A stretch of 64,000 nucleotides of DNA from Trypanosoma brucei (lineage: Eukaryota), in NCBI GenBank assembly GCA_000002445.1, contig AE017150.2:992001-1056000 (forward strand), in the 5' to 3' direction. Below, piece after piece: positions 2,730-29,718 of the stretch. The number at the start of each line of letters is the position of its first letter. Within the stretch, counting starts at the first letter, position 1. The position numbers were made by a program, and so were the translations under genes. Below the pieces are notes generated by a model. That model was not told the DNA's origin. It ran no database searches and worked only from the letters and a program-made list of their open reading frames with translations.

Positions 2730-2734
<5 letters not shown>

Positions 2735-7972: not shown

Positions 7973-7977
<5 letters not shown>

Positions 7978-8473: not shown

Positions 8474-8500
8474 CACTTTCCCCCCTCCCCCATCTTCAAG
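8474..8500 (+). promoter_or_regulatory. Polypyrimidine tract plus AG (8499-8500): putative trans-splice acceptor for the 8506 gene
   Basis: ttcactttcccccctcccccatcttcaag lies immediately upstream of the first ATG. This is the typical kinetoplastid SL-addition context. Confidence 0.5.
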
Positions 8501-8505
8501 CGTAC

Positions 8506-11500
8506 ATGTCCGATGTTGAGGGTTCGATAAGCTTTTCTAATGTGGAGTCCCATATTCTTGCGTCCGAGGCGGTAATGCAACACCAAGAGGTAGTAGACAC
8601 CTTCAGCGACGGCTGGAATTCCCCTACTGGTGTTCATGTAACGGGAAACAATGACCGTGGAAGTATTGTTTGTAATACTGCAGAGTGGGCTACTGGATCG
8701 GATGGCCTTGATGACGGAGACTTAGGGAGGAGGAGGTCTTCCATATATCTTGATGCCAAAGATGGAGACGGGCCCGTGTCCGTTGCTCAGGGGCGCTCAA
8801 CCATTGACAACGTTGCCCTGACAGTTGATACGAGGCCCAGCGACCTAGCGGCGACATTGGAGGGGGAAAACTATCCGTATTATGATCTCGACTATGTCTG
8901 CTCGTACGCTTTCCAGAGTGAACATGCCGACCTGAATAGCCACGATTATGGGCTTGATGCCTTCATTCACGGAATGCGGCTGGGTCCCTGGCCCCTGCAA
9001 TCGACCGTGACGACCTCTCCACCACGGGTTCTAGATGGCCAATCGAATAGGCTCGCCCAGTTTGGTGGGCTGCAGTCGAGTTTGACGGTAGCAAGTGAGA
9101 GTCCCCTCCGAAACGACGTAGGTGTGCTGCGAGAGGCCAACAGTCTGCAGGACAAAACATCTCCTAACGGAACATCGGAGAGGTGGCTGAGGTGGTCTTT
9201 CCGGGCCTTTGACGGAAAATGCAATCTTCCGCAGGGCACTACAAGGGGCTGTGATACCTTAGGTGTGAGTGAGAGTTCCCTTTATGATGTGGATATGGTA
9301 TTGGGGCTACTTTGCACAGACAACGGGATTCCCGGTGTTCTCTCGAGTGGAAGTTGCAGTGAGGGGCACACGCAAAAAGCTAGTGAGATATGCATGGGAG
9401 TTATGCGCCGTGGGGACAGTGGATCCAACAATGAACTGATGCTGTTTCCTCGACATGATGATCGAGGAACTGGTGCCCTGACAAATGGGACGAGTGGAGC
9501 GGTATATCCGAGGTGCAGCGAGGACATCATAGGTGCTCCCACCGGAGTCGTGAACGCGCAGCCTCTGCGTACCGAGGAAGGAAAAGCTTCCGGTAACGTT
9601 GAGCTCACCATGGTCGGCGACGTACTACCAAAAACGTTTTCATGTCCTTCTGCAGCCTCTGACTTTGTGGGCGCCGAAGGGCCGTTAGGGGACGTCAAAG
9701 AAGGTACCGGACTCAGTTTGCCGTCGAAAGCTCTTCCCATATCTGCCATTCTTACTGACCGCGCACGTGGCAGGGTTGGAACTCCATCATGTAACTCTTT
9801 GGTGGATAGTTTAATTGGGGGGATGGAGTATCCGTACTTTAGTGGCCTCAAAGGCGACTCGAATTTGATTATAAGCTCACCTTTGCCGTCCCGTCAGTCG
9901 ATTTGTACTGCGGAAGAGGGTGAGGGGGCTATTTTGTCTGCCGAGGGGGTGTCTGTGGGCATGGAAAGGGAGTGTGAGCAATATCTGCAGTCTCATATCT
10001 CCTGCTCTGTGGGTGTGCATCTGCGATGCGGAACGGAGCTTCGTTCGATTAACCCATGCATCGCTCGTTGCGGCGACAGTCGTCCAGGTTCGACATGCAG
10101 GCCAGCCAGTTGTAGTCTAGATAAGAATCAAGGTGTAGGACAGGGGGTATGTATGGGTGGAAGCGAGCAACTTTCCATTCAGAAGCGTTCCAGGGAAAAG
10201 GCAGTTCAGGGCCCCGGGAGAATGAATGGGTCATCGATCAGTTTAGTGGCGGGTGCAGAGTCCATTACCGCATCTCAAAGCTTTGTGCGCCCGCCGGCTG
10301 CAGTTGTTTCCCGAAAGAGATGGCATCCGTGCAGCGAGCTTAGTACTGGTGGAGTGTCTGGGTCTCATACGGTTAAAGTGGCTGAAGATGGGATGTGTCT
10401 CGTTGAGGGGGGGTCGTCACCAATTATCAGGGTTTCAAGGGAACGACAGAGTGTTCCTTCAAACCGAGTGCGTTTGATTGTACTCAACCACAAAACGGGA
10501 ACGGGACAGAATGATGTGCAGACGGCAGTAAACCTCCGCGGAGAGAGTACGCTAGAAGTCTGTCCTCCACAGGGCTTGCCACACTTCTTTAGCGTGGACG
10601 AATACCTGGAATGCACCGATGACAATGATATGTGCTCTGTCACACTCGCGGAACTTCAAGGAAAGTTTCTCCGCGGCATGAACGTTGCCATGTTTGTTGC
10701 TGGAAGTGAGTCAGTACCACTGTCTGGCTGGTGTGCGGTTTTTGAGGTGATGAATCATGTGTTTCGTGACATCAATGATGAGTGCGAGTTGTTTATGTCC
10801 GTTGTCCTAATACGACAGGAGTCAGCACGGGATTTGCTTTCTGAGTCCGAAGGGGGGGTGCGAACTCTAAGTTCCTCCGTCATGGCTCCTTGGGTTGCCT
10901 TTGAAAACGTCACCCATATGAAACTGAAGAGCGCACATCACTTCATCACACTTTTATCGCGTGGTCTCGAAGTTGCCGATTTGAAGCACAATTGTGTCGG
11001 AAGTCGTGTAGTTTTGTCCGTCATGTTGAAACAAATTGATGTGAATGATGTAATTTTGTCGTCGATGCTTGTGACGGGTGGTGCTACCCCTAACGACCTT
11101 GATGTGCTACTGAGGGAAGGTGACCAAAGTGCACGAAAGCTATTCCATGAAGCGTTGGGTGGTCCTTATTTCACTGTTGTGGTTTCCTCACTCTGTGAAA
11201 GGGACAGAGACCTTCTGCAGCTTCTGAGCGCCCAACATAAGTTCACTTCCGTTGTCAACCAACCGTGTACCGTAGGAAGCGTGAGTCGGTTGATCGATAA
11301 TGCGGAGGCGGAGGTTGCTGGGTGTTCCACTGACGATCAAATTGTATTGGAAAGAAAACAATTCTTGCTTGAGCGCATAGCGCTTGCGAAACATATTATG
11401 TATAACCCCAAAGGGCTTTCACTGGTAGTTGACGTGGAGGAATCAGTACGACTTGAGAAGAGGGTTCATTGTGGTGTGAAATTTGACAAGCAACCGTTCC

Positions 11501-14500
11501 CTGGACCACAGTCCTCATCTGTGTCTGCTTGTGGCGGGGATTCCCACAACGCGGCGTCTGCGCTGTGTGTGGAGGAAGGGCAAAGTAGTAAGCAGAGACA
11601 AGAACCATGTCCAAAATTTTTCTCGGAGGCACAGTGGCTGAAACCAAGTAGCAAAGGCGACACTAGAGTTACGCTCATGGGTGGCGCGCCACCGTCATCG
11701 CTGCCACAACGCAATCATTATGGGGAGGGGAAAACACCCTCGTGCTTGCCCTGTGTTACCGCAGCAGGCATGCCCACTCCCCGAGATCCCCGACTGGAGC
11801 GCCAGGTGAGGCCATCCAGCAGAAGACTCAGCATTCCAGTGGAGCCGGATCAAGCTAGTTACGCAACGACTTGCAGTATGTCGGACCCCCAAAGGGGGGA
11901 GGGTTTGCCCTCCCTGGGCCCTTTGGCAACCACATGTGGAATGGAATTGGCGCCATCTACGCAGCGTAGAGCCCACCGTTGTTTTCCTTCCTCAGCTTCC
12001 TCCGACCACACGACATGTGCATACTCACAGCGGCTGTTCTCGCTAACCCCCGCTCGGGGGGCCTCGCATGATGCTGAGGTCTCCTGTAAGATTGACACAC
12101 CCGGTGTTCCTGATGCAGAAAAAGTTAGAACTTCTACCACGCCCGATGCTTTTTCATGCCCAGGTATAAGCACAAAGGTGAAATACGACCCTGGCCTTTC
12201 TCTCCCATCCTTGAAGGCAGCACGGGGACCACCGTGTTCCATGACATCTTGCTTCCCATTCGACCCAATCCTTACGGGACCCCCCGGTGTTGTGGAGCCC
12301 GTGGAGCACTGCGGAATCTCGCAGGGCCCAGCACTCTGCAGACAGAGGGAACAGCCACAACTGCCCGATGCCTCGGTTGCATGCTCTGGGGGCTCCCCAA
12401 CCCTCACTTGCAAGCAAGTGGCTCATGCGAGCCAAAACAGCGTGCACACCGACATCAAGAAGAAGCAAATTTCTGACGGCGGTAGTGACAGCAGCGCACG
12501 GAGCGCAGAAGGCAGCGAGGATGATGTGCTGCACAGTGCCATGTCTGCACCTTCTAAGGTGAGAACGCTTGTTGTGGTCGACCAGGGTTGTGGACACGTG
12601 ATTGGTGCCGGGAACGATGACGGTGGGCCTTTCCTAAGAACTGGCGGCTCTCATGAGGGATACGAGGTTGACGAGGTGGTGAAATGGGGCGATGGTTGCG
12701 GTGACGTGCCTTCGAAGGTGTTGGGTGAGCTGTTTGATGTTTTTGTTTTGGGTTGCAACGCTGCTATCCTTACTGCAGAGAGTGGTTCCTCAACCGTGTC
12801 ATCAACTGTGCTTAGGGGTCTCGTACGGAATGTGCTTTCAGAGGTTGTTGATGCTTCGGGCCTCCAGAATTCCAACCGTAGAGGATTGCTCAGCTTATCG
12901 ATTGTGAAATTGAGCGGAGAGCGCATGCTTGATCTGCTGGATGATAGCAGCGAGCCGGAGAGGTTGGTCATAGCTATGTCGCCGATCTTCGGCCCGTGTG
13001 TTCACAACGCCCGCCGGTTTCCTGTTAGCAGCTGCAGCGGGTTCGACTCGCTACTGGCATCAGCCCTTCGTCGCGCCAAGAACGCAGGGGTCGATGATGG
13101 GTTGGTGTTCGTCTCAGTTGTACTAAAGCAGAAGCTGAAAGCGGATGGGGATGTCCTTGTCTCATCTCTCGCAGTCAGTTTGGCAGGGGAAAACGTTGAC
13201 CTCTACACATCCGTGCTGAACCGTGTCTCGCGCGCACCGCGTGCGCTATTTCACTACGCATTGGGTGGACCGTGTTATACTGTAGCGTTGCTTAGTATTG
13301 ATGTCGCAACGACTCAGACCGAAAATATGCTGCGCGTGCAGAAGTGTATTGGAGAGGTGGTGAACCGGCCGATACACCGCGGAAGCATCGTGAAGTTTAT
13401 TAGCGGAATCCGGGATGATCTCGTGCCTAGTCTTCGTGAAAAGTTTCAAGGGTCGAATAAATGTGAGCCGTCAGATAATATATTGTACCGGCTCGAGGAA
13501 ATGGTGCGAGACGCAGAATTGCTTTTGGAGAATTTCGAGTCGAATGACCCCCGCGCATATCTTAGTGACAAAGAGACAAGGTCGCCTAAGGGGTGCGTGT
13601 CGCTCCTAGAGACCAAAGCCAGAACCGGGGACGAGGGGAGGGTTCATTCACTTTTATTCTTCGAGCAACGACTCCTTAGTGATGGTACCGCTGGTGTGCA
13701 AGGTAACTCCGTATTTACCCGAGCAGGGGCGATTACCCGCCGCTATGGCGTCGACGAGGTGGTGTTGCGTGGGCCCGACAGCGACAGTAATGCTACTCTG
13801 TGTTCACGTCTTCTTGATGAGCTCGTTCGGAAGTTTATGTCGGGGCATTGCACTGCTGTTCTTGCCGCAGATAGCCACAACTCCGCTTCCACACCGCTTA
13901 TCCTCCGCAAGATAGTGTACCTTATCCTGCAGAGTACGAAAGCAGGGGTGGGTTGCGGGCCGGTGGGTGGCGACTTGCTCCTCTCAATGGCGCTCGTTAA
14001 GAACGGTGTTACGGTGGATCTATTGGCAGCTGAAGAATCCGAGGCGGTTCACCGCTTCGGGGTGGAAATATCACCACTCTTCGACCGCCACGTACGGGGA
14101 GTGTCGCATCGCGTTGTCGCCGACACTGAGGCTTTTGACCGTTTTTTAGTTGGGGCTGTCGAGCACGTCGTACCCACCCTACAAGCCGAGGATCCCGGCC
14201 TGATGGTTGTTTCCTTAAAGTTAACACACCATGTGGAAGAACCTGTACACGACGTGTTTGTTTCCTCGCTCATGGTGACCACCGTATTCGATCACGTTTC
14301 CCACTACAGCGACATTTTGTCAAACCGCTCTAGTGAGCTCACGGACCTTTTCAAGCTCGCGTTGGGGGGGCCATGTTTCACTATCGTCGCGCTTGGATTG
14401 TGTGACGAAGATGATGATGCGGAAGCCTTGCTTTCCGTGCAAACTAAGCTTTCCCAGGTGCGAAACCTGCCGTCTCATCGCACGAGTGCTCTACGGCGCA

Positions 14501-14688
14501 TGGATGAACTTACGAAAACAATTCAGGTGCTGGGGGTCCAGCTTCAGGAAGAAGAAAGTGAGGAAGAAAAGGCCCAACTCCGCGTGAGGATCGTCCGTGC
14601 AAGGCGTTTCCTGCTAGAAGTTGAGTCACTCCTCAAGAACCCACCACGGGAAATGGGCTGCGTACGCGCTTACAAGTCGGTGCACTGA
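8506..14688 (+). CDS. Large (2060 aa) protein with a ~700-aa S/G-rich low-complexity N-terminus followed by three degenerate kinesin-motor-like modules (pseudokinesin-like); paralogue of the next two genes
   Basis: ORF track 8458..14688 starts at GTG; the first ATG is at 8506. Each module follows the kinesin motor skeleton with catalytic motifs degenerate: GSRVV in place of SSRSH, and LFHEALGGPYFTVVVSSLCERD resembling LLQDSLGGNSKTLMIATISP. Other module versions are ALGGPCYTVALLSI and ALGGPCFTIVALGLC. Modules end with coiled-coil plus [LM]L.[ND]P...Y motifs (LLENFESNDPRAY; LLKNPPREMGCVRAY). Confidence 0.6.
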   Translation: MSDVEGSISFSNVESHILASEAVMQHQEVVDTFSDGWNSPTGVHVTGNNDRGSIVCNTAEWATGSDGLDDGDLGRRRSSIYLDAKDGDGPVSVAQGRSTIDNVALTVDTRPSDLAATLEGENYPYYDLDYVCSYAFQSEHADLNSHDYGLDAFIHGMRLGPWPLQSTVTTSPPRVLDGQSNRLAQFGGLQSSLTVASESPLRNDVGVLREANSLQDKTSPNGTSERWLRWSFRAFDGKCNLPQGTTRGCDTLGVSESSLYDVDMVLGLLCTDNGIPGVLSSGSCSEGHTQKASEICMGVMRRGDSGSNNELMLFPRHDDRGTGALTNGTSGAVYPRCSEDIIGAPTGVVNAQPLRTEEGKASGNVELTMVGDVLPKTFSCPSAASDFVGAEGPLGDVKEGTGLSLPSKALPISAILTDRARGRVGTPSCNSLVDSLIGGMEYPYFSGLKGDSNLIISSPLPSRQSICTAEEGEGAILSAEGVSVGMERECEQYLQSHISCSVGVHLRCGTELRSINPCIARCGDSRPGSTCRPASCSLDKNQGVGQGVCMGGSEQLSIQKRSREKAVQGPGRMNGSSISLVAGAESITASQSFVRPPAAVVSRKRWHPCSELSTGGVSGSHTVKVAEDGMCLVEGGSSPIIRVSRERQSVPSNRVRLIVLNHKTGTGQNDVQTAVNLRGESTLEVCPPQGLPHFFSVDEYLECTDDNDMCSVTLAELQGKFLRGMNVAMFVAGSESVPLSGWCAVFEVMNHVFRDINDECELFMSVVLIRQESARDLLSESEGGVRTLSSSVMAPWVAFENVTHMKLKSAHHFITLLSRGLEVADLKHNCVGSRVVLSVMLKQIDVNDVILSSMLVTGGATPNDLDVLLREGDQSARKLFHEALGGPYFTVVVSSLCERDRDLLQLLSAQHKFTSVVNQPCTVGSVSRLIDNAEAEVAGCSTDDQIVLERKQFLLERIALAKHIMYNPKGLSLVVDVEESVRLEKRVHCGVKFDKQPFPGPQSSSVSACGGDSHNAASALCVEEGQSSKQRQEPCPKFFSEAQWLKPSSKGDTRVTLMGGAPPSSLPQRNHYGEGKTPSCLPCVTAAGMPTPRDPRLERQVRPSSRRLSIPVEPDQASYATTCSMSDPQRGEGLPSLGPLATTCGMELAPSTQRRAHRCFPSSASSDHTTCAYSQRLFSLTPARGASHDAEVSCKIDTPGVPDAEKVRTSTTPDAFSCPGISTKVKYDPGLSLPSLKAARGPPCSMTSCFPFDPILTGPPGVVEPVEHCGISQGPALCRQREQPQLPDASVACSGGSPTLTCKQVAHASQNSVHTDIKKKQISDGGSDSSARSAEGSEDDVLHSAMSAPSKVRTLVVVDQGCGHVIGAGNDDGGPFLRTGGSHEGYEVDEVVKWGDGCGDVPSKVLGELFDVFVLGCNAAILTAESGSSTVSSTVLRGLVRNVLSEVVDASGLQNSNRRGLLSLSIVKLSGERMLDLLDDSSEPERLVIAMSPIFGPCVHNARRFPVSSCSGFDSLLASALRRAKNAGVDDGLVFVSVVLKQKLKADGDVLVSSLAVSLAGENVDLYTSVLNRVSRAPRALFHYALGGPCYTVALLSIDVATTQTENMLRVQKCIGEVVNRPIHRGSIVKFISGIRDDLVPSLREKFQGSNKCEPSDNILYRLEEMVRDAELLLENFESNDPRAYLSDKETRSPKGCVSLLETKARTGDEGRVHSLLFFEQRLLSDGTAGVQGNSVFTRAGAITRRYGVDEVVLRGPDSDSNATLCSRLLDELVRKFMSGHCTAVLAADSHNSASTPLILRKIVYLILQSTKAGVGCGPVGGDLLLSMALVKNGVTVDLLAAEESEAVHRFGVEISPLFDRHVRGVSHRVVADTEAFDRFLVGAVEHVVPTLQAEDPGLMVVSLKLTHHVEEPVHDVFVSSLMVTTVFDHVSHYSDILSNRSSELTDLFKLALGGPCFTIVALGLCDEDDDAEALLSVQTKLSQVRNLPSHRTSALRRMDELTKTIQVLGVQLQEEESEEEKAQLRVRIVRARRFLLEVESLLKNPPREMGCVRAYKSVH

Positions 14689-16410
14689 GGCTGGTGTGCC
14701 TCCATTCTGACGTTTATTACTCCAAGCCTCATCTACTTGTCACTTTGTGTGCTAGCATGAAGGTACTTGTGCACTACTGCCGAACGCTCGCACCCCTATG
14801 GGTCCGGTTGAGCTGTGGAAGTGGGTACACACTTCTAGTATGTTGGGTTTCCCCACCTTAACACTACCTCTGGTTGCGTTGCCCATTCGGTGGCTCGGAT
14901 ACGCCAAAATTTGTGTGTGCGTCGTTATATAAATGTCATACACACGCGCGTATATATATATATATATATGTACCCCATAAGTGTTCCCTTCTCCCTGCTG
15001 GTGCACGCTGCTGCTACCAAGATACCGCTTGTTTACTTCGATAAATTTGCTTCTCCCACGTGCCGTTGAAGGGCGGTAAGGGTGAAAAGCGATACCTTTG
15101 TCTCGCTGCCGCGGGGGAGCTAGGGCGGGACTTCGCTTTACCTCTTTCTGAGGGTTTCTGTAAGCCGATCTCTCTTCCGCAGAGAGTGGTAAGTATAATG
15201 TGTGTGTGTGTGTTTAGTGTATTCCCTTCCTGCGCATCGTCTTAAGTGCTTAGTACATTTTTTAGTTTTTTTTCGTGTTGCCGTAAATTTATCTCTTTCT
15301 TTCATCGCCTTTGTTATCTGCAATGCGTCCGCATTTGGGAAAAGGTAGGAAGGAGTGTTCCCTTCGTGAACGTAGTGAGTGGTTGGAAATAAAGTGAGCC
15401 GTGTGTGCTGACCGTCACGCGCGTTTTTTTTTTGTGTGTGTGTGTGTGTTTATTTCAATTTTGCTGTGTTTTTGCGGTTATTCGATGGGAACCCACCCTT
15501 CCCCCCTCCCCTAGAGTTTTTTACACGTGTTGGGCGGAAGGTCATAGTAGCGACCCGAGGAAGTACCGACACAGCCTCTTTTTATTTTTTATATACCATT
15601 TACTTACGTGTTCTCCCCCTTTGTACCACTGCTACTGTTTTGGGGTCGCGCTCCGTTGACGCGGAGTCACTTACATCGATGAATAGCATGTGTGCCCATT
15701 GTATTTTTTTCCAGGTATCCTCTGCTTACTACTAATAATAATGAATGCACCGCGGAAACTAAATAGCGATCGCTTCATACGACTTGTTGTTGCGGTGACT
15801 AGGGCGCCCTTCCCAAGGGCAGCACGGAAGGTTTTGTCGGGATAACATCATGTCTTCATTCTTTCATTCCTTTTACTCTTGCACACCGATAACGTAGCAA
15901 GTCGCGAATAGGATCGGCAGCTTCACTGAGAAGGTCTTTGCAATGCACTGAGCAAAACCCCTGTGAGGGCACGCCGCTGAAACTGGTAATTATATTTCAG
16001 AGTGAGAAGATTCAACTGCCGAATCCACGGCTGCACAAGTCTCCGTATTGCATCTCGGTAAAATCTGAGCTGGCGCGGAGAATTCTGTGTGGGCTTGGGG
16101 AGCAGTTACATAGCATCTTTGGACGGGAATAATACCCCTTGTACCCAAGAAGGGATCCTGTCGGATGTGCTCCGACTTACTTTGTAGTCACGCACACACA
16201 CATGCTCGGCAATCTTCCTCATCTGTGTTGTCAGCACGGTTCCCAGACCTCTACGATACTTGTTTTTACCGTCGACGGCGTGGCGCCATGCCTCGGAGGT
16301 TACACGTTTCATGCGAGTCACATACGTTCTTGGGTTTGTCCCACTTTCCAACTTGGTGTAAGACGTTCCGTGGTCAGCCCGGCCTAGTTAGTTGTTCAAA
16401 CGCCTCTGTT

Positions 16411-16446
16411 TCCCTCCCCCTCTCCTATTTCTACGTTTCTCAAAAG
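16411..16446 (+). promoter_or_regulatory. Polypyrimidine tract plus AG: putative trans-splice acceptor for the 16515 gene
   Basis: cgcctctgtttccctccccctctcctatttctacgtttctcaaaag lies upstream of the first ATG at 16515. Confidence 0.45.
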
Positions 16447-16514
16447 CTGTCTTTGGTTTCAGAAAGAGGAGCGAAAGCAAGGGAAGTCAAGCAAGTAAGT
16501 TTTGTAACCGTAAA

Positions 16515-19500: not shown

Positions 19501-21083
19501 CAACAAAGGTGGTGGGGAGTGCGGTACAAGTGGAACCTGTGCTCGAGGCCGCTTTGATGGAGGCGAAAGATGCCTTTAAGGACAGTGGATATATTGTCTT
19601 CACGGCAGTGCTGAAGCAGGTAACCGCCGCTGATGTAAGCGTTTCGTCATTATTTGTCGTGAGCGCTCCCGACATGCAGCCGTTCGTGGATGCGCTGGAG
19701 AAAAAGGAGACGCATCCGCATGCATTGTTCGCGCACGCACTCCTGGGTCCGTGTTCGTGTGCCCTACTCGTCAGCTATCGGGATGTGGATGACAATGTAC
19801 TTAAGGCTCTTGACGCGCACCGTGAAATAACGCTGAAGAACAACAAGCAACCGGGTGGAAGCGTCAGAAAGTTTGTTGGCGTGGTGGAGCAGTCCATAAC
19901 GGCTGCTGAAGAGAAACTAAAGAGTGTGGATGATGCAAAGGAGAGGGAGCGACATGAGCAAGTCTTGCGCGACAAGAAACAGGCTCTGCACGACGCACAA
20001 AAACTTCTGGAAAAGCCCAACGAAACACAGCCCGTCGCGTACGTTCCGTCGATATCCCAGGAGTCCGGAGGGGCCGATTCCACTGTTCGCGTGGTCGCAG
20101 TCCTCACCGATAAACGTGATGGAAAGAAGCGCAATGTTATTGCCAAGGACAACGGGTTCACGATCAAAACTTCTGTGGAGGAAACGGAGTTCCCAGCTGA
20201 TGAGGTGGTGAGGCGCATAGGTCAGGCAGCGAAAATCCGTTCATCTTCGGTCGATTTTCTCATTGATCACTTTGTAAAGGGGTACAACGTCGCCCTCCTC
20301 ACGGCCGATGTCGATGGTTTCTCGACAGGAGAGAACCTGTTGGAACACACGGTCCGCAGCGTCTTCACGAAGAAAAATGCGGACGGAGAACTGTTTGTTG
20401 TGCTTGCTTCTATCAAGGCTGATTGCTGCTCAGCGAAGGATCTGCAACGCGATGGCGCTACGTACGACCAACTGCAGTGCGCTTCTTCACCACTGTTCGG
20501 GCCCTGTGTTGCTGATGCGAAGTTTGAACTTGCGACAACTCCGGATACGCTGCTGCGGAAAGTGAGGTCCGCCATTCAGGTATGCGAGGCAGACAAATCT
20601 ACGCTTTTGTGTCTTTTTGTTTACAAGGAGCGGAAGCCCGCGGATGGTGACGTCTTCCTGTCTTCATTTTTCTTTTTCCTAGCCGGGAGTAGAGTGGATA
20701 TTTACACTCAAGCTCTGGAGAAGCGTCAGAAGGAACGGGGTCTGTTCCAGTATGCGCTTGGTGGTCCATGCCTCACTGCCTTCGCCCTCGGTCTCTCGAC
20801 GAGTAACAGCGATGTTGAAACAGCCACAGCCTTCGTTAGGCTGGCAAAAAAAGTTCGCGGGAGTAAAATCGGCACCATCCGCACTGGTGGTATACAACGC
20901 TTTGTGGCCTTCTCGACAAAGGCCCTTGAACAACTACGCGTCTTGCAGGAGAAGGCACCGGAGAGTGACAGGGGGCGACTCAGAGAGAGCAGTACGAACG
21001 TGGAAAAGGTGCTTGCTGACGCAGAGGAACTCTTGCGCAACCCAGAAGGTCGTGCACCACCACTCTACAAGCAAGAGCGATAA
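16515..21083 (+). CDS. Pseudokinesin-like protein (1522 aa) with N-terminal Y/G/M-rich tandem repeats and three degenerate kinesin-motor-like modules
   Basis: ORF track 16392..21083 starts at TTG; the first in-frame ATG is at 16515. Module motifs are GHNTALILSDS / GYNVALLSAEMVPDEVTG / GYNVALLTADVDGF and VLGGGSCVVAVVG / ALLGPCSCALLVSY / ALGGPCLTAFALGLS. Each module is followed by an ERERHE coiled coil and LLSDPEETRAKVY / LLEKPNETQPVAY / LLRNPEGRAPPLY. Confidence 0.6.
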   Translation: MMRKNLNSNDVSQPHSTTTLDTNPASYGTVRNPLHSVVGPTGYGAQPPISSPATWVNNHSAAFAAQGLGPHCGAPGGRPFPVVRGSTNRGDSYTELQCPVAGSGPTNPYGNRTAIDKLPGLEGGRFDCGGAGQRRGPLLGVSGDLYGVTGISNSTSRGNDRHNGSMYGTNPTYSKTSRTGSMYGMGSMYGRTSRIGSMYGMGSMYGRTSRTGSMYGMGSMYGRTSRIGSMYGRTSRIGSMYGRTSGTGSMYGMGSIYGMGSMYGRTSRTGSMYGPRMEYGPIYGVGGPMGSMYGPQMGYGPIYGVGGPTGSMYGPQMGYGPIYCVGPMYGRPSRTDSVYGPQMGHGPMYCVGGLLYNKAFQEGDPGRGPTVPKSAPCNSSTPSAGVTTKPDAEPDREEKEPRVTGGKKPTTFTNKGPAAETAKKPCDLDSGNGKVKHSPVAQVPPDNSVRTLMVVSSEAGPQVTIKEEERKVGVASSGEEVVYYEGDEVVHGDEITVEKSALLQMIVQQVELGHNTALILSDSTPQQTLSACVTTSVMKSILAALRKGETENGTKYEVLATAADVPTIATARDLLAVESEAVKIARYGSNPMLGACLMDLQETVLRDDADVDVFVQEALKKSSGTAALGVMHATLKQIRKTSSAAPTVYVSSFVCLFVKDGVEHLQDLLDMNGKVVPLPLAKSVLGGGSCVVAVVGASGKDVAVDAKILSNTAALRGVKNTPPRSGNVARFVEFAETQFTECKAAIERSKEAAERERHERTLRRLEIMLSDARKLLSDPEETRAKVYPPSRESVKNGSVENDGGNVRNGASIEDDRPSAATLAPAPASADSLTEPKEQEVIGAPAPAHTTEPWEKTAKIIVTAGSGPSNGTAEVVAGGEKKTDEVDEYIQRTGVRPVDSVIAKRMEGILTQGYNVALLSAEMVPDEVTGDQVTWSLVKAILKGALSKKDGVTNECTLQMSILRGDKVVLDLLGSSEKRQLVVARSPIFGVTVQGATTKVVGSAVQVEPVLEAALMEAKDAFKDSGYIVFTAVLKQVTAADVSVSSLFVVSAPDMQPFVDALEKKETHPHALFAHALLGPCSCALLVSYRDVDDNVLKALDAHREITLKNNKQPGGSVRKFVGVVEQSITAAEEKLKSVDDAKERERHEQVLRDKKQALHDAQKLLEKPNETQPVAYVPSISQESGGADSTVRVVAVLTDKRDGKKRNVIAKDNGFTIKTSVEETEFPADEVVRRIGQAAKIRSSSVDFLIDHFVKGYNVALLTADVDGFSTGENLLEHTVRSVFTKKNADGELFVVLASIKADCCSAKDLQRDGATYDQLQCASSPLFGPCVADAKFELATTPDTLLRKVRSAIQVCEADKSTLLCLFVYKERKPADGDVFLSSFFFFLAGSRVDIYTQALEKRQKERGLFQYALGGPCLTAFALGLSTSNSDVETATAFVRLAKKVRGSKIGTIRTGGIQRFVAFSTKALEQLRVLQEKAPESDRGRLRESSTNVEKVLADAEELLRNPEGRAPPLYKQER
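17005..17585 (+). repeat. Intragenic tandem repeats: 33/51-nt units (GSMYG[MGSMYG]RTSR[IT]G) then 60-nt units (GSMYGPQMGYGPIYGVGGPT)
   Basis: ggttccatgtatggcatgggttccatgtatggcagaacatcgagaataggt repeats directly. Overlapping alternate-frame and antisense ORFs (16949..17263-, 16966..17592-, 17236..17820+) are repeat shadows. Confidence 0.85.
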
Positions 21084-23114
21084 TCTTCATGCGTGTGGGT
21101 TAGGAAGCATATTATCATTGTACACGACTGGACACGCTTTTCTGGGGGTGGCATCCGTTGACCCAGCAGAAAAAGTGGTGTCTGTCAATTGCATCGTTAG
21201 AAAGTATGTTTGTACTTGCGCTATTATTATTATTATTATTTTGTGATTAGTACTAATTATCCTGAAGTGTGTAAAGAAAGGCTATTAAATTTCAGAGGAC
21301 ACCAATTCTCGATACTGTGCAGAAGTGCGAGTCGTGCTGAAATCTGCACTTGTTGGTGTGACGAAAGTAGTGGTGCCTGTTGAGCGGCGTTACACTCCGT
21401 TCAGACGCATCGCCAACCTACTTTTTCCTTTCTGTTCGTCACGTATGTTTTTCCACCTTTCCTTTTTCTTTGCACGTGGGGGGAGCGGATTAAACACGTG
21501 TCAATATTAAAATAACTCCATGAATGAAGCGGTGAGGTTGGGGGTTGTATCCGTGCGTCTGTGAGGGGTGTAATCAAAAGTGTCACAAGACTCTTTTCCC
21601 ACTGGTCTACTGCATTTGGCAGAATAATTCTTGTTTCTAACAAAGTAGGCAGATGCGATCAAAGATCAGCCCTCTGTCCGCTTTAGTTATTTGTTACTTT
21701 TTCTCTTTGTGTTTCATTTATCGCTTTGTTATTTTTATTCTCCTGCGGAGGCTCCTCCTCATGTGTCACGTCACATTGATTCTTTTCGTGAGGGTCGAAG
21801 CGGACGCGGCAGGCAGGTTGGGCGCAAGCCCCTCATCCTTTCGTCTGAGCAGCACCATGCGACTGTTTAATATGAAACAGTAAGTGATGAAAACGACGAA
21901 GAAGTTCCACCGAGTATGACAATTGTAGCAGCAGTCCTTCCCAATACCGAGTTTTATTTTTCACGGAATTTCGCGTCCGTTGTTTTACCAGTTATTTTAT
22001 TATTCCTCCCTCTGCTGTACTGTACATTCCCTGCTGTTTTTTTTTCCTTACTTCATTATCCTCTTTCTTTTTGCCCTGCAATATGTGTAGACAGTGGGTC
22101 TGCCGTCGGCATGCTGATGAGAGACCCGCTCTGCACTCGTATTATTTGTTTATTTTTTCGTTGGGAGTTACACAATTATCCTCAGTGTGTTGTTTTTGAT
22201 TATTTGTTTTTACATCCCCGTGGTAGTGTTGGTGATCCATTGGGGTGCATCCTGCACGCCTGACGGATGTGTATGTTTTCCACTCCATTACGCGCCCTTC
22301 GCTTCGAAGCTGGGCAAAGTGACTATGTTTCCCTCTTCCTTCCTCTACCACTCCTTCACCACGGCAGTCCCGCAGCTGCAATTCAAAGGCTCACGCTAGT
22401 CGATTACAGATCAGAGGACGCTCCGTAATGCTTCTTATGCAAAACTGAGTCCTTCGCAGGTCAACACCTGGCTGACTTGCAAATGCGATGTTTTGCTGGT
22501 GTGCAGTTGCATCTGCGCTAGTCACCGTGTTATCCCTGTGCCCAAACTGCGTGTGTGAACGGTAAAGAATCATGTTGGCAGGGAAACAAACATAGTAGTG
22601 CAGGGGCAGTGCGGTCCGAGGGATGTGTGAGTACTTGTTAATCTGTCCTCGCTCCCACAACTGTATAAATGTTCCTTCTTATCCGTCGAAGAGGTGTGTG
22701 GATAAGCGATTAGGGGGGGGGTGTGGAAGGAAATGTTTATGTTAAGTGGTACTTTCTCATCTTGGGCATCGTCTGCCTGTCGTTCCTCCCTTCCTATAAA
22801 CCCCCTCCGCCTGCTCGTAGTTGATATTGTGTACCTCTTACATGAGCATTGTTATCATGTGTTGCCCGTCGTCTCATCCCTGTTTTATGCTAGTTAGGTT
22901 GCTAACCTGAGGAAAGCACTGTTGTTACACCGCCGCCACCACCACTGCATACATTCAGGGAGCCTACATTAGAGGCGAACCTGCGCGTAGTAAGAGCGGA
23001 AAGCGAGTGGTCAAACAAGTGAAGATAATATACCTGACTGAAAGGCACTGTAACTGCAGAAGTTGGAAAAAGGGGCGGGACTGTGCGCAACAACAGCACC
23101 GTACGTGTGCTCCG

Positions 23115-23759
23115 ATGCTTCCGCACTCTCAGCCGCTGGTGCTCCCAATGGAACCCTCCAACTGGGCAGTGATGCCTCCGACGGGGGTGGAAATGCCCAT
23201 GGAGCCCGGAACGTTTGAAGATATCTCGACAGCGGGTTGGATAGGCCCTCGCCGGAGGTCGTTCTGCGGACCCCAGACGGAGGAAGAGTGGGAAGACCTG
23301 ATGATTCACCGCAGCTCCTTAAGACGTGAGAGTGGCCAAGGCACCGGAGTCGGGCTATCCGGGTCGGGCTGCCTTCTGGGAACAGATGATCCTGACCGTG
23401 ACGTTCTGTGTGAGTATTACGGTGACATGGCAAACCGAGACGAGAAGGTGCTCAGTTGTGGCCTGCGCGGTCAAGAAGGCCGAAGGGTATTGGGAAATAA
23501 ACCACTGCGGCAACGGCCCAATGGTCCAATGCGCGAGCGAACCAACTACGGATCACTGGCTAGTCGCCGTCAGCGGGTAATGGAGGAAGGTGGGGTGTGG
23601 GGCGACGTCGAGGTGTGCTGCGTCCCAGTCGAGCCGTGGCACCCAATGGACATGGTGTGCCTGGGAGAAGAAAGGCCCGAAGATGTGTGCGTGCTGCGGC
23701 AGACGGACACAGAGTTATATGGCACTGGGCGGGCCTTCGCGACCGATGGGAAGCCATAA
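23115..23759 (+). CDS. Hypothetical small protein (214 aa from first ATG), GC-rich, in the 4.4 kb interval between paralogues 2 and 3
   Basis: ORF 23007..23759 starts at GTG; the first ATG is at 23115. The region is covered by several overlapping antisense ORFs, the usual signature of a GC3-rich sense gene. No recognisable domains. Confidence 0.3.
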   Translation: MLPHSQPLVLPMEPSNWAVMPPTGVEMPMEPGTFEDISTAGWIGPRRRSFCGPQTEEEWEDLMIHRSSLRRESGQGTGVGLSGSGCLLGTDDPDRDVLCEYYGDMANRDEKVLSCGLRGQEGRRVLGNKPLRQRPNGPMRERTNYGSLASRRQRVMEEGGVWGDVEVCCVPVEPWHPMDMVCLGEERPEDVCVLRQTDTELYGTGRAFATDGKP

Positions 23760-24622
23760 GTAAGTAGTGAATGACGGCTATTTTCCAGACCGCCTCCCCA
23801 GGAGGTTTGAAGTATAGGAAGGGCACAACGACCGTTGCACGTACAGAGGCTCTGAGGTAAGCGATAGGTCATATGCGTCCGTGTTTGCGTGTGTACTCGT
23901 CTCGGTAGGACCGTTGGGGAGTTGTCGACGGACCCTGTGGCTAGTTTAGAGGTGTGCTCACAACCAGTTAACAGTAGTGCAAAAGAAGGTGAATTCCTGC
24001 AGCAGGAAGTTATACATGCGAATGATGGGCTAGTAACGTACAGTGATTGACATGAACGGGTGGTAGTTGGGGAGGGGGGGGGGGTTGCTGTACTGTGGTG
24101 CCAAACACCCTGGTGTTTCCTGGCATATCTATTACCCTACACACCGCTCCCTTGTTGTGTTTCTTCTGCACTTTCAAACATACAACGAGTGCCACCAAGT
24201 ACTGCCTATGGGGGCGTTCTCCTGTATGTAGCGCCATACCCTTCGCATATTGATTTCCTTCGACCCAAAATTCTCATCGCGTTTGTACATAACCCTTTTA
24301 TACGTCTCTTCCTTTATTAACATTACCAGGGAGGACGGTGGTTTGTGCTATTAATTGTGCCTTCTTGTGATTATTTATTTATTTATTGTGAAATGACTGC
24401 AGCCTGTTGCAACTACGTTGCTTATGGTGAGCTTCGCAGCTATATCAAGAGGTGTTTGAGTCGAGTGGAAGCGAATCCTCTGAACCAATCACTATACAGC
24501 CAGCTGCCCATAGTTAGGGAATTAAGTGGATTGACCATTGCTCCAGATGTTAGTGCCGTCCACCTAGTGATGTCTACTGCCTTTCTTTCGGAACCCTTTC
24601 CATTTGCTATTTCTATCAATAC

Positions 24623-24625
<3 letters not shown>

Positions 24626-24664
<39 letters not shown>

Positions 24665-24666
24665 TA
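24626..24666. repeat. (TTA)n microsatellite (~13 units)
   Basis: Direct reading. It produces poly-L/poly-Y/poly-N runs in the spurious ORFs 24345..24725+, 24604..24804+ and 24440..24709-. Confidence 0.9.
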
Positions 24667-25504
24667 TTCTCCCCCTCTTTTCTTCCCCATTGTACGTGCG
24701 TATTCCCATGTATTGGTTTCTTTGATTCGAGTTGTCCCGTTTTACTTCCCTTTTTTATTCAGCGTATTTTTAGGGTTAAAACGCTACCGAGCGTGTGGTG
24801 GTAAACTTTACTCTCCCAGTTGCGTGCTCACTGACCGTCGGGCATTGTTTTCATGTGCTGCTCAACTTTATCGCTTCCTGTTGATCTCTTTTCCCGGTAC
24901 CTTCTCTCATAGTATCGTTATGGTTAGGGAAGTCAAACAAGCGTCTCATTATACACCATCGGGGTGGACCGGAAGTGCTTGCTTTGTGTGATACACTGAA
25001 ACAACAATTCAACCCAGTATCACTGGTTGGGGCGCATTTCAACGTAACAGCGTCCGCTGCTCGACTTGTTGCAACCTACGGGCTGTACAACAGGTCCCGT
25101 CACTACGCAGCGAGTTGCCCTATCCCCTCCTTCTACTGGTCTTGTGTGATTAGAATGTTCATGGTCATCATACCGTTTGTAGGGCTGTGATGCCATCACG
25201 GTTGTGTGGCCGTGGACAGCGGCACTGTGTTAAACTCCACGGCCCACTCGTTACCCCGCTGTGCGTAGTGAAATGGTTTGTCGTTACCTTCCGCTATGGT
25301 TGTGCGTACTGTGGTTATCAATGATGGGCTTGCCACTGAATCACACAGATATGAAAGGATTTTTGCGATTTTTTTCTCTTCCCTCTTCCATATTTTGGTT
25401 TACTCCGTACAAACAAGGAGTGAGATTGTAAGGCAAATTTCCGTGTGACACGAGGAAGTTGTGTAAGCCACCCAGGTTTGGCCACGTGCTGATAAGCATT
25501 TGTA

Positions 25505-27799
25505 ATGTCCACGGTACAGGCAGCCGCCGCCGCACCAACAGGATCGATCCTTCAGTGCAGAAGTTCAGCACCGAAGTCGAAGATGGGAGAGAATGAGGAA
25601 AAACGTGGTGGCGCGAGCGAAGGAACTACACACACACAGAACCTTGTAACCGTTGACACTGCTCAGACCTCCCAACCATCCGCCACTCGACCACCAGCCC
25701 CCACGAGCGGCTTGGGTCAGGTGATCCCGATCTCACCACCGAATGGTCAATTGGGCAGCCGCAACACCGTACCACCTCAAAGACAGGGGTTGTTCCAGGG
25801 ACAGGGAGTCATGGGAAACATGCAGGAGCCTGCCGCAGGAGGGGGTGCCTATTGGGGGACAATGGGCGGGTATACGTATGGTGTCGCGCCGACGGGGTCT
25901 GCATCTAACGCATTTTATCCATCAGCAAGAAATGGAGGCTGTGTCTTCCCACCGCTGCAGGGGAGGATGGCCGGCTACCCCCCAGCTGTTCCGCCGCCGC
26001 CGAGTTTGTTTCAAGGGCAGTTTCCCTCCGGGGGCAGAGGGATTGTCGCCACTGGTTGTGGGGCACGGAGTGTGTGTGGATACGCTCTCGACGGGTTTGC
26101 GCGTGGCGGACGCGTGCGTCAACATACCACGGGAACGAGCGCACATGAGGGGGCAGTGTGTGAAAGTGTGCACGGACCTGCTCTGGGTGACGTGTCCAAC
26201 CCCCTCCCTTACTCAGTGTATGGGGAGGGTCATGCTTTTCCGTCGTTGCCAGGGAGGCTTGCTGGGCACTTGCCTCAACGGAGGAACTCATTCCAGCAGC
26301 AAGGGTCATTCCATAGCCAAAGGGAGCTCGGTGACCTGCATGCATCCGCCGCGGGAGAAAGTATCTATGGTGGATGTGGTTACGCCCTCAGTTTTCGTTG
26401 CTTTGTTCCCGGAACCTCAGACACGGGAGTATGTGGCTCAGCGGTGCATGATTCTTCTTATGGGAACCGTAATGGTATCTCACAGATGGGGAGCATATAT
26501 GGCAACGGAGTGGGTCGTGTGCCATCACCATTGAGGACCAGTTTGTGCCCCGTCATCGCAACCATCAAGGACCACGTGCCGCTGCAGAGAAGTGGACTGC
26601 GTGGTGGGAATGTTGTAGCCGTCGGGGCGGCCAAATGTGGTGGTGAGGGCCGGTCTGCGGATGAGCTGAAACCTGTGCTGGCTTCCCCTGGGAGATCCCT
26701 TGCTTCCCAGAGTGAGTGTTCCCCTGCCGGTGATGACTCGAGTGCACAGACCCTTGTACTCGAAAACTACAACATTCACTCGCTCGTCATTCTCGATAAG
26801 GATGAGGGACCCTCAGATAAGGTAGTTGTGACTGTGAAGGACCCTCGGACGGTGGTCTTCAGACGGAGCGATGGGGGAGAAGAGGAGCATGTTAACGATG
26901 AGTGCCTTGAGCGTAGCGAGGCGTCGGCATATGTGAACTCTGTGTTACTCAACGACCTCCGACTGAACTGGATAGCTGGCCGTACCTCTGCACTGCTTGT
27001 GGGGGCTGGGAGGAACTGTGGAGATACATCGGTGACTTTTGCGGGTGATTTTCTCCAAAGGTGCCTTGAGAGTGTGGAAGGCGCCAAGGAGAAGTGCAAG
27101 TATTTCGACGTAACTATAACGCTGGGTATGATGGAATCCTCTGACCGCATTCTTGATCTCCTCGACACTGAGAAGAAAGGCTACGAAAGGGTGCAGCTTG
27201 CATCCAATCCCGTGTACGGGCCGTGTTTGCTTGGGATGAAAACGAAGAAGGCAACCTCCTCTAAGGAGTGTATGGAGGTGTTTAACAGTGCTATGCAACT
27301 CGTTGATAATCCAAAGCACCTCATCGTCGGTTTTTTCGTCCTGAAACAACTGAAGAAAACTGCCAACGGTGGGGATGTATACCTCTCTTCGTTATGCATT
27401 GGGCTCGCTAAGGAAGAGGTCTCGCGGTTTGCCGCGTTGAAGGAGAAGGACACGTCCGAGCCACACCGGCTGTTCCGATACGCGATCGGTGGCGGCAGTG
27501 TTACAGTTTCCACCCTGATTCTCTCTCAATGTGACACGGGCGCTAGCGACAGTCTCGACGTCGAACGCAGGATGCGGGAAGTGAAAAACACTCCACCGCG
27601 GATCGGTAGTGTGCTTCGGTGTGTGGAATCAGCGAAAAAGGAGATAAACAGACAGCAGGAGAAGATGAAGGATATGGACAGCACCGGGAAGGAGCCCACG
27701 GCGAGACTGGTAAGCCGTATGGAGTCGATAGTAAGGGATGCGGAGGAGATGCTGGCTAATCCGATTACCACAGCGCCCAAGGGATACCTCATTGTTTAA
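25505..27799 (+). CDS. Pseudokinesin-like protein (764 aa): Q/G/P-rich low-complexity N-terminus plus a single degenerate kinesin-motor-like module; third member of the tandem family
   Basis: ATG at 25505. YFDVTITLGMMESSDRILDLLD has the kinesin f.v.vSylEIYnE.i.DLL shape. NPKHLIVGFFVLKQ stands in place of SSRSHai. LFRYAIGGGSVTVSTLILSQCD resembles LLQDSLGGN.KT.MIA.ISP. KNTPPRIGSVLRCVE follows, and the C-terminus is MLANPITTAPKGYLIV. Confidence 0.55.
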   Translation: MSTVQAAAAAPTGSILQCRSSAPKSKMGENEEKRGGASEGTTHTQNLVTVDTAQTSQPSATRPPAPTSGLGQVIPISPPNGQLGSRNTVPPQRQGLFQGQGVMGNMQEPAAGGGAYWGTMGGYTYGVAPTGSASNAFYPSARNGGCVFPPLQGRMAGYPPAVPPPPSLFQGQFPSGGRGIVATGCGARSVCGYALDGFARGGRVRQHTTGTSAHEGAVCESVHGPALGDVSNPLPYSVYGEGHAFPSLPGRLAGHLPQRRNSFQQQGSFHSQRELGDLHASAAGESIYGGCGYALSFRCFVPGTSDTGVCGSAVHDSSYGNRNGISQMGSIYGNGVGRVPSPLRTSLCPVIATIKDHVPLQRSGLRGGNVVAVGAAKCGGEGRSADELKPVLASPGRSLASQSECSPAGDDSSAQTLVLENYNIHSLVILDKDEGPSDKVVVTVKDPRTVVFRRSDGGEEEHVNDECLERSEASAYVNSVLLNDLRLNWIAGRTSALLVGAGRNCGDTSVTFAGDFLQRCLESVEGAKEKCKYFDVTITLGMMESSDRILDLLDTEKKGYERVQLASNPVYGPCLLGMKTKKATSSKECMEVFNSAMQLVDNPKHLIVGFFVLKQLKKTANGGDVYLSSLCIGLAKEEVSRFAALKEKDTSEPHRLFRYAIGGGSVTVSTLILSQCDTGASDSLDVERRMREVKNTPPRIGSVLRCVESAKKEINRQQEKMKDMDSTGKEPTARLVSRMESIVRDAEEMLANPITTAPKGYLIV

Positions 27800-29718
27800 G
27801 TTTCACTCCACCCGCATTCATAGGCGGCAAATGAGAACAGGGTTGAGGCCCAAACAAGTGTTAGTAGGTGGATGTGCGTATGTGTTCGTTCGTTGCTGCA
27901 TTAAGCAAAGCGAACTAGTGTGCACGCGCGGAGGCGAAATCGTAGGAGTCGCGAGAGTTAGATTCACCACAATCTTTGAACTTTCTGGTGACGCAAACCA
28001 GTGTCCACAGTAGGAACTATTTCGGTGCTGTCGTGACCAACTGCGCTGTGCACGCGAGTCCCATTTTCTTGGGTGTTGATAACTTTTGCGCGCTTGCCGT
28101 ATAAGGAGGTAGCGCACGCAAACAAGAAAGAATGAAAACGAAGGTCCAAATTCCAGGGTCGGTAGGCATTATTTATGTTTTCAAAGGGGTTTATGGGTGT
28201 ATACCGAATACCAAACTACCGTTCGCGGCGCTCAGGCCCTCGCTGCGGTCCTCACAACAGCACCCACGGGGGATCTGTGTGTAGACCCGTGTGGTGCCGA
28301 AACGAATGAACGAAATGTCGTCTTCCTCATATATATATATATATATATTACCTTGCAAAGCTGGGTTTGCTATATTCTGTTCTATTTTTAGTTCATGCTT
28401 GAGTATGTTAACTGCCCTTCCCCGTAGGACTTTGTTTTGTTTTGTATTTGCCTATAATGGAGGGTCCAATCGTCCAGTGCTTGGGGATGGAAGAGGATAT
28501 TTTATTTTGTACAAACTTTCTTCACAGTCATTCCTTTATGCACAAGGACTCATAGTAGCTGCTGCAGTCAGATGGCTGGCACCATTGTGGGCGCTAAAGC
28601 CCTTCATCGTTATTCCATTAATTAATCTATTTTTTTTATTTTTGTTTCTCCTCTCTGCCTGATGAGGCTCAATTGTGCCGGTACATCTTTCAATTTGTTG
28701 TTTGTCCCAATCATAACCCACGCGTGGGGTACCGTCATTCGCGTGTTTGGGAAAAAATGCAGTGTTTTATTCGACCATGTCAGACTCGCTGGGATTGAGC
28801 CGATGCTAGCGTATACTGGAGCTCCTGTAATGTGACCTCGCGACTCTCTTCCCTTTCCTCATCTTAACGGTAGACAAGGTCCTGTCAAAGCTGGCAGGCT
28901 CACGAAGGCAAGGTGTGGGTTCCGTTGGTTACATGCGCATAAGCAACTTTGTAAATTTTGTATTTTTTGCAGTGCGCTTGTGTGCGAAGCTTTCACATGT
29001 ATGTACGTTTAGTCACTTCTTCGTCGGTTTGCACTAGGTAGTAATTGGTGCAGATCTCTAGCTTTGCTGGGTGTGGAGGTGTTTCTACGAAAGGAATGTG
29101 TTAAAACAATTTTACAATTAATTTCTCCTTTGTTATTTAAAGGAAAGGAACTACTCTATTTTTCACGTGCAGATGCAGTGATCACAATCGAAATGTAATG
29201 TTGTAGGGGGAAAGGAGGGGCTTCCTTCAAAAAGTGAGCAATCGGGGTGTTGGTCTTGTCATCACTTGAATGAAGATTGGCCGCTGTCCTTATTTATTGT
29301 CGGTAACGAGGAGATTGTGTGGCACCCTTTTTTGCAACATATATTTACGTATTTGAGCTGTTTCTAGTGGCGTATGAGCGAGGTGAGTAAGAGTTTTCCT
29401 GAACGGGAGATACGGGAATGGAAATTGTGAGGTTGATGCTTGTTATCTTCTGTCCTCGTAGTTGTTCGCAATTGGTTCTCTTTAAGGCGGTAACTGTGTA
29501 TGTGTCCGTTTGTTTGTCTGACGTCTTTCTGACTCTTCCACTGCCGTAGGAAAGGAACGGGAAATATATACTTTAGTAAATAGATATCACTCTTTAACCG
29601 GTAAGGCGTCGGCTGTATCACTGTACGTCCCCAAAGGCACAGTTACTGGGGAAGGAAATAAGCACCACTCTTGAGAGGAAGAGGCCCATCAACAGCAAAT
29701 ATTTGTGGTACTGCGACC

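Follow-up and report, generated by a model that had tools for sequence, protein, structure and literature searches.

A stretch of 64,000 nucleotides (nt) of Trypanosoma brucei DNA on contig AE017150.2 (hereafter the window, to whose positions all coordinates refer) contains three plus-strand genes, called here G1, G2 and G3, whose products carry seven modules related to kinesin motor domains and devoid of their catalytic motifs. It is essentially certain that the three genes belong to the family described by Owino et al. (PNAS, 20 July 2026) as ARND (for Adhesion Related NTPase-like Domain), whose canonical member is KIAP4 of Leishmania mexicana, LmxM.32.2940 (PMC13416946). Taken as a whole, the statement that G1, G2 and G3 are ARND members working as non-enzymatic scaffold modules in the flagellar attachment plaque is one that we hold to be probable, with some reservation. 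The family itself was already known, named and partly characterised in July 2026 and, since its publication covers the kinesin fold and the dead Walker A motif too, the pseudokinesin finding is no longer new; the opinion of an initial annotation of the window, namely that these genes could be assigned to no named family, is consequently out of date.

Genes and module architecture

The three genes extend from 8506 to 14688 (G1, 2060 amino acids, aa), from 16515 to 21083 (G2, 1522 aa) and from 25505 to 27799 (G3, 764 aa), all on the plus strand. The coordinates proposed in the initial annotation are correct, as the translations (8506-14685, 16515-21080 and 25505-27796) have no internal stops and each is, by look-up, an exact match to a deposited protein of T. 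brucei TREU927, that is, XP_951715 for G1, XP_951716 (identical to XP_951713) for G2 and XP_951718 for G3. The deposited annotation of the three genes reads only 'hypothetical protein, conserved'. In UniProt, G2 is named POMP22, where POMP designates a proteomic list, drawn up for the mitochondrial outer membrane, and not a sequence family. A transmembrane anchor was considered as an explanation of this name and rejected, since a hydrophobicity scan in 19-residue windows found no membrane anchor, with all maxima falling within the folded core and no hydrophobic segment outside it.

The claim that the three proteins together contain seven related modules, distributed as three, three and one, is confirmed by three kinds of comparison. 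BLASTP searches among the three proteins return module-on-module matches with E values from 2.6e-43 to 5.7e-05; in particular, the module is shared between G2 and G1 at E 2.6e-43 and between G2 and G3 at E 7e-21. Seven segments of about 340 aa, a length greater than the 300 aa or so first attributed to the module, align end to end with 13 invariant columns. Finally, a hidden Markov model (HMM) built from the seven modules and run against the open reading frames (ORFs) of all six frames of the window recovers exactly three, three and one modules in G1, G2 and G3, and nothing beyond these except a truncated minus-strand mirror of G1, described below. Each module is built of a kinesin-like core of ~280 aa, a two-helix hairpin of ~50 aa and a short tail.

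In G1, whose three dead kinesin-like modules are supported by the exact protein match, by Pfam and by the HMM, the N-terminal region (aa 1-651) holds no recognised domain and is followed by module 1 (10459-11478, aa 652-991), the most divergent of the seven, which ends in a degenerate tail without a Tyr, HIMYNPKGLSLVV. An S/P-rich linker (aa ~1011-1324) separates it from module 2 (12550-13572, aa 1349-1689), with the tail DAELLLENFESNDPRAY at 13510-13560, and module 3 (13669-14685, aa 1722-2060) closes the protein with the tail EVESLLKNPPREMGCVRAY at 14617-14673. In G2, module 1 lies at 17850-18887 (aa 446-791; tail DARKLLSDPEETRAKVY at 18825-18875), module 2 at 19068-20051 (aa 852-1179; tail DAQKLLEKPNETQPVAY at 19992-20042) and module 3 at 20091-21080 (aa 1193-1522; tail DAEELLRNPEGRAPPLY at 21018-21068). 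The only module of G3 is found at 26765-27793 (aa 421-763), with the tail DAEEMLANPITTAPKGY at 27737-27787, and is modelled with a predicted local distance difference test score (pLDDT) of 94.4.

A long low-complexity N-terminus had been ascribed to each gene, a description that holds for G2 only. There, sequence entropy drops, alone among the three proteins, over Gly/Ser/Met/Tyr-rich tandem repeats (17043-17491) in units such as GSMYGRTSR and GSMYGPQMGYGPIYGVGGP; the repeats are nested, with periods of 18, 30, 48, 60, 66 and 96 nt, and comprise GSMYG(R/M)TSR- and GSMYGPQMGYGPIYGVGGP-type units. The N-terminus of G3 (aa 1-419) is G/S/A/P-rich and thus biased in composition only, and that of G1 is of normal entropy. 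Gly-rich, Tyr-enriched N-termini recur among the orthologues of the G2 and G3 types. Gly/Ser/Met/Tyr-rich N-termini are also seen in Leishmania and Leptomonas relatives, and are reminiscent of self-associating [G/S]Y[G/S] low-complexity domains. With regard to the arrangement of the modules along the chain, a tandem model of G2 modules 2 and 3 combines well-folded modules (pLDDT 89.3) with a predicted template modelling score (pTM) of 0.57 and an inter-module linker of pLDDT <50, which points to a predicted architecture of beads on a string.

Kinesin fold, active site and tail

The resemblance of the module to the kinesin motor-domain skeleton, as first proposed, is borne out by profile searches. 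Against the Pfam family PF00225 (Kinesin), with a gathering cut-off of 29.3 bits, G1 scores 31.8 bits over aa 1384-1523, above the cut-off, G2 scores 13.6 bits, below it, and G3 gives no match. The seven-module profile matches 97 sequences of the Protein Data Bank (PDB), the best 60 of which are all kinesin motor domains, with KIF13B as the best match (E 9.4e-12); likewise, a 51-sequence family profile finds only kinesins among its best 60 PDB matches, the best at E 1.3e-12. A profile is needed for these matches, because a phmmer search of PDB sequences with G3 alone returned only noise (eL30 at E ~1). An hhalign comparison of the seven-module profile with a single KIF5B sequence gave a partial and weak alignment, with a probability of 24%, and was not used. 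Within the superfamily, the modules lean weakly to kinesin-3 (KIF13B, KIF1A, KIF14, KIF16B and KLP-6). The modelled modules, too, are predicted to adopt the kinesin motor-domain fold, and the kinesin identity of the module fold is essentially certain. The initial annotation had named two outcomes that would speak against it, a different fold and modules unrelated at profile level; both were examined, and neither was found.

The catalytic motifs were mapped by combining HMMER alignments to PDB kinesins with direct motif counts in 113 modules, namely the seven of the window and 106 from the homologues of the HMM search presented in the next section. The Walker A motif GxxxxGK[ST] is present in none of the 113, SSR in none of the switch I segments and DxxGxE in none of the switch II segments, where an 'LAG' remnant is left in nine; RxRP is kept in a single module. 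Specifically, in the alignment to KIF13B the 'YGQTGSGKS' of the motor faces 'AdsesstlS' of the module. The absence of P-loop, switch I and switch II noticed at the outset is thus confirmed far beyond the window, and it is essentially certain, as judged from the sequence, that the modules are ATPase-dead. That they should still be NTPases by means of a highly divergent active site is exceedingly improbable: the loop at the P-loop position of G3, GAGRNCGDT, is indeed Gly-rich, but an Asp replaces the Walker lysine in it, the loops of the other six window modules are unrelated, the three motifs are missing from all 113 modules, and the published analysis of Leishmania members reaches the same conclusion (PMC13416946).

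A second element of the motor is reduced. The segment from beta7 to LGG measures 41-43 aa in 102 of the 113 modules, and the same anchor points enclose 51 positions of the family profile vs 84-90 residues in kinesin-4 and kinesin-8; in other words, the alpha4 region is ~33-39 residues shorter than in kinesins. In the G3 model, the stretch between beta7 and beta8 holds no more than one helix of 7 residues and another of 4. The principal tubulin contact of kinesins consists of L11, alpha4 and L12 and, because the L11/alpha4 element is truncated, we infer from the models that canonical microtubule binding would be lost as well.

This point distinguishes the modules from other kinesin-like proteins that have lost catalysis. 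The motor-homology domain of Vik1 and Cik1, the yeast Kar3 partners (PDB 2o0a and 4gkq), has a kinesin fold without a nucleotide site, as the ARND modules do. In Vik1 the domain is single and C-terminal, pairs with a genuine motor as a heterodimer and has retained microtubule binding; the proteins studied here, in contrast, have up to three modules each, no known partner motor and a truncated alpha4, their post-core helices are modelled as an intramolecular hairpin and not as a dimerising coiled coil, and the identity between Vik1/Cik1 and the modules is only 6-9%. Kinesins with a degenerate ATPase (KIF7/Costal2, KIF26A/B and NOD) keep recognisable nucleotide pockets and microtubule binding, whereas at sequence level the ARND modules keep neither the nucleotide pocket nor the microtubule interface. 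A function as non-motor microtubule binders of the Vik1/Cik1 or KIF26/KIF7 kind, by which the modules would tether structures to axonemal or subpellicular microtubules, appears quite improbable, considering that L11-alpha4-L12 is cut to two short helices and that the Leishmania ARND proteins reside with KIAP3 in a membrane-proximal plaque and not at the axoneme (PMC13416946).

Beyond the core, in both models, the last core helix is followed by two further helices, ~19 and ~26 residues long. An ERERHE-type coiled coil had been proposed to follow each module at this point; the string 'ERERHE' itself is limited to G2 modules 1 and 2, and the helices are modelled as an intramolecular antiparallel hairpin instead of a coiled coil. 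The conserved tail that follows fared better, since a regular expression for this motif, first described as [LM]L-x-[ND]-P-x(5-8)-Y, has six matches in the three proteins, every one at a module end, leaving out only the degenerate tail of G1 module 1. Across the family, the consensus can be written D-A-x-x-[LM]-L-x-x-P-x4-P-x-x-Y, with the D conserved in 87 of 113 modules, the L in 84 of 112, the first P in 81 of 112, the second P in 72 of 100 and the Y in 78 of 105; in a Leishmania member the tail reads LQRHPRKETAKVY. The tail is probably not the free terminal linear motif that it was taken for, as it also follows internal modules and not just the protein C-terminus, and as the models give it a confident beta-bridge. 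In particular, each of the three modelled modules has a tail pLDDT within 88-93 and a beta-bridge assigned by DSSP to its Tyr and, because of this combination, the tail probably packs on the core. Its partner is possibly the N-terminal strand, an isolated bridge residue being located immediately before beta1 in both models. The readings on tail docking and on microtubule binding are taken from the secondary-structure and confidence output of AlphaFold2 (AF2).

Family relationships and proposed role

When 1.84 billion representatives were searched with the HMM without an index, 609 matches passed E<=1e-3 and 139 passed E<=1e-10. The named homologues include proteins of the trypanosomes T. congolense, T. 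theileri, T. cruzi, T. grayi, T. conorhini and T. melophagium, and of Leptomonas, Lotmaria, Phytomonas, Angomonas and Leishmania martiniquensis, with one to five modules per protein. Orthologues with equal module number and order are found in T. theileri, T. congolense, Phytomonas and Lotmaria, and the window modules are closest to the modules at the same position of these orthologues (42-67% identity, vs ~30% across positions). For example, G1 module 2 shares 53% identity with module 2 of the T. theileri protein and 43% with module 2 of that of Phytomonas, and the three modules of G2 share 55-67% with the matching modules of a T. congolense protein (P0020), which, on this sequence comparison, may be the G2 orthologue. 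Since identity is higher at the same position than across positions, the intragenic triplications are dated by sequence as older than the split between Trypanosoma and Leishmaniinae/Phytomonas. The conservation also makes untenable the idea that the genes are decaying functionless duplicates, or pseudogenes, to which we give next to no credence: the loss of catalytic motifs and an annotation limited to 'hypothetical protein, conserved' would fit such a decay, but the ORFs are intact over 764-2060 codons, module number and order are kept by orthologues with the positional identities given above, and the module folds are modelled with very high confidence.

As for Leishmania, the module profile matches P0081 of L. 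martiniquensis, and proteins of Leptomonas as well, with E values from 5e-44 to 2e-191. Together with the listing of Tb927.2.5610/POMP22B among the published paralogues and the POMP22 name of G2, these matches amount to strong, though indirect, evidence of homology to the L. mexicana ARND proteins. P0081, a single-module protein of 650 aa, has a match to G3 at E 8e-30, and the tail motif and a Gly/Ser/Met/Tyr-rich N-terminus are shared as well; of the three window genes, G3 comes nearest to those Leishmania proteins that have a single module in a KIAP4-like architecture.

The ARND family was found, as an arrayed family on chromosome 32, through TurboID-KIAP3 proximity labelling of adherent L. 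mexicana haptomonads, and is defined by an NTPase-like domain that resembles kinesin and has no Walker A, together with a coiled coil and disorder; a kinesin, mostly KIF16B, is the best Foldseek match of every ARND domain, Walker A is never conserved, and the family is found across kinetoplastids save Bodo saltans and T. rangeli (PMC13416946). G1, G2 and G3 resemble this family in that they combine NTPase-like domains of kinesin fold that lack Walker A with disordered regions and with segments that are helical or coiled-coil, and in being arrayed genes conserved across trypanosomatids. Judged from composition and models, the helical and disordered parts correspond to the two-helix hairpins, the G/S/P-rich N-termini and the linker of pLDDT <50. 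No feature of the three genes contradicts membership, and one T. brucei gene named as a member, Tb927.2.5610, is G2 or its identical twin. Because the downstream adenylate kinase and FLAM8-like ORFs fix the gene-number position, G2 of the window is most likely Tb927.2.5610 (POMP22B) itself.

Eight KIAP4 paralogues are reported in T. brucei, of which the text of the paper names just Tb927.2.5610, the eight identifiers being apparently confined to a figure (PMC13416946). Searches of the main text find Walker A as its sole 'motif', and no mention of switch motifs, of microtubules, of the tail motif, of modules in tandem or of an inverted duplication (PMC13416946). The loss of switch I and switch II, the alpha4 truncation, the DAxxLLxNPx4PxxY tail, the position-by-position orthology of modules and the duplication of the T. 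brucei locus as a palindrome appear, therefore, to be undescribed there.

When KIAP4 is deleted, Leishmania neither adheres nor colonises the stomodeal valve; three paralogues of T. congolense are located at the adhered flagellum and, of the eight in T. brucei, four are up-regulated upon RBP6 overexpression (PMC13416946). An independent RNA-seq study found normal RBP6-induced up-regulation of the mRNAs of POMP22-1 (Tb927.2.5530) and Tb927.2.5610. On this basis, the following mechanism can be proposed. The modules are kinesin motor domains without the means of catalysis, as they are stripped of Walker A, of both switches and of RxRP, and also of most of L11/alpha4, the part that contacts microtubules in kinesins. 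The core continues into the two-helix hairpin and the DAxxLLxNPx4PxxY tail, the latter probably packed back on the core, and from one to three such rigid modules are carried on flexible linkers behind a putatively disordered N-terminus, Gly/Tyr-rich in G2 and G3. Instead of acting as enzymes, the modules would serve as protein-protein interaction or scaffold units, and the scaffold would help to build the cytoskeletal plaque that attaches the flagellum of the tsetse-stage epimastigote to insect tissue. G2 (POMP22B) might additionally, or instead, be placed on the mitochondrial outer membrane in procyclics. The adhesion role of G1, G2 and G3 themselves is an extrapolation from the relatives in Leishmania and T. 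congolense and from expression data.

Several points weigh against this proposal. The localisation and knockout data on adhesion come from L. mexicana and T. congolense relatives only, no ARND member is up-regulated in adherent Crithidia, and an adhesion role is, according to the authors, not necessary for every member (PMC13416946). Tail docking and the loss of microtubule binding are, moreover, drawn solely from AF2 secondary structure and confidence. Finally, POMP22B (Tb927.2.5610) is the exception among the T. brucei paralogues, as its TrypTag signal in procyclics is clearly mitochondrial, which hints at another function at least at that stage (PMC13416946). From the same localisation it could be argued that G2 (POMP22B/POMP22-1), and perhaps its neighbours, would have its main place at the mitochondrial outer membrane, as a peripheral protein concerned with the shape or positioning of the organelle and linked to adhesion by historical kinship only. 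We consider this somewhat unlikely: the protein has no hydrophobic segment beyond the folded core, its transcripts rise on RBP6 induction like those of other vector-stage genes, and the T. congolense members, one of them maybe the G2 orthologue (P0020), are found at the adhered flagellum. In any case, the mitochondrial and the adhesion roles are not mutually exclusive.

Within the scaffold proposal, a speculative extension can be formulated for the origin and assembly of the modules. Each ARND module might be a 'frozen' auto-inhibited kinesin-3-like head, in which the hairpin would represent neck coil and CC1 folded back (compare KIF13B, PDB 6a20, and KLP-6, PDB 7wrg) and the tail a permanently docked latch resembling neck linker or cover strand, and the surfaces freed by the loss of alpha4, together with the Gly/Tyr-rich N-termini, might polymerise into a filamentous plaque. 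We put this forward tentatively, as an idea with the balance tilted clearly against it; the published description of the family proposes no such auto-inhibited-head origin or assembly mechanism (PMC13416946). The analogy drawn by Owino et al. is with the calpain-like pseudo-proteases of kinetoplastids (PMC13416946). There, too, an enzyme fold was expanded in kinetoplastids, was deprived of the residues needed for catalysis and serves cytoskeletal morphogenesis; the fold is unrelated, and the analogy is one of evolutionary logic only.

The duplicated locus and its neighbours

The G1-G2-G3 trio is one arm of an inverted duplication. An inverted repeat of 100% identity pairs 1-2721 with 7978-10698, and the divergent strand-switch region between the two G1 copies (2194-8505) is a perfect palindrome, whose arms, 2759-5286 and 5422-7949, flank a unique centre of 135 nt (5287-5421). 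The mirror twin of G1, recognised by the inverted repeat and by an HMM match, is represented in the window by its 5' part, including the start of module 1 (1-2193, minus strand): its start codon is located at ~2193 and the gene runs past the left window end, the module HMM matching a truncated minus-strand ORF at 1-2244. This copy is probably XP_951714, the near-identical twin of G1, and G3 also has a paralogous copy, XP_951711, more than 90% identical to it. The protein accessions follow the order G3', ?, G2, G1 | G1, G2, ?, G3; judged from this order, six such genes are probably present at the full locus, and the order suggests that the whole trio was inverted-duplicated around the divergent strand-switch region. 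The 100% identity of the palindrome could be due to gene conversion or to an assembly artefact. In T. equiperdum, the contig CZPT02000137 is collinear with window positions 15195-28955 at 98.7-99.6% identity; near window position ~28955 (contig position 13464) it diverges, with an 880-aa gene and an ABC transporter in place of the adenylate kinase of the window. The divergence point may be the outer edge of the duplicated arm, or may reflect a collapsed assembly.

The three genes are not strictly consecutive, contrary to what had been assumed, since a 214-aa ORF (23115-23759, plus strand) lies between G2 and G3. It has no Pfam match, and the T. equiperdum assembly contains a gene call of identical sequence. 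A perfect (TTA)12.7 microsatellite is located at 24627-24664, between genes and upstream of G3. Downstream of G3, an adenylate kinase ORF (29671-30501, plus strand) fits ADKA (Tb927.2.5660), a component of the paraflagellar rod. A giant plus-strand ORF at 41981-51301, with an ATG at 42074, encodes 3075 aa with 17 matches to Pfam FAZ1_cons (PF23398), and contains about five near-identical repeats of 453 nt and an array of 30-nt repeats at 47851-48570; its length and gene-number position fit the flagellar protein FLAM8 (Tb927.2.5760). Further genes on the plus strand encode a tyrosyl-DNA phosphodiesterase (TDP1, 39953-41629), an FBPase/SBPase-family protein (54288-55355) and an SPT6-like protein (56153-60850). 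The long ORFs other than G1, G2 and G3 (adenylate kinase, TDP1, FLAM8-like, FBPase/SBPase-family and SPT6) were considered as family members and discarded, as the HMM detects no module in them. In addition, the ~9.4 kb from 30500 to 39950 are free of ORFs of at least 200 aa on either strand, AT-rich stretches are found at 38001-40000 (GC 0.37) and 52001-54000 (GC 0.36), and GC skew is locally reversed at 32-34 kb.

With the family already published, the discovery value of the present analysis is small, and what it still contributes concerns structural details and the architecture of the locus. The window displays the T. brucei locus as an ancient trio of genes with three, three and one modules, mirrored in a perfect palindrome, and the details added here, that is, the loss of three nucleotide motifs, the truncation of the microtubule-binding helix and the putative tail latch, could guide experiments. 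With the ARND/KIAP4 proteins, a sizeable number of components is available for the first time for the hemidesmosome-like plaque by which trypanosomatid flagella are anchored to insect tissue, an anchoring that is needed for the transmission of Leishmania and, probably, for that of African trypanosomes too.

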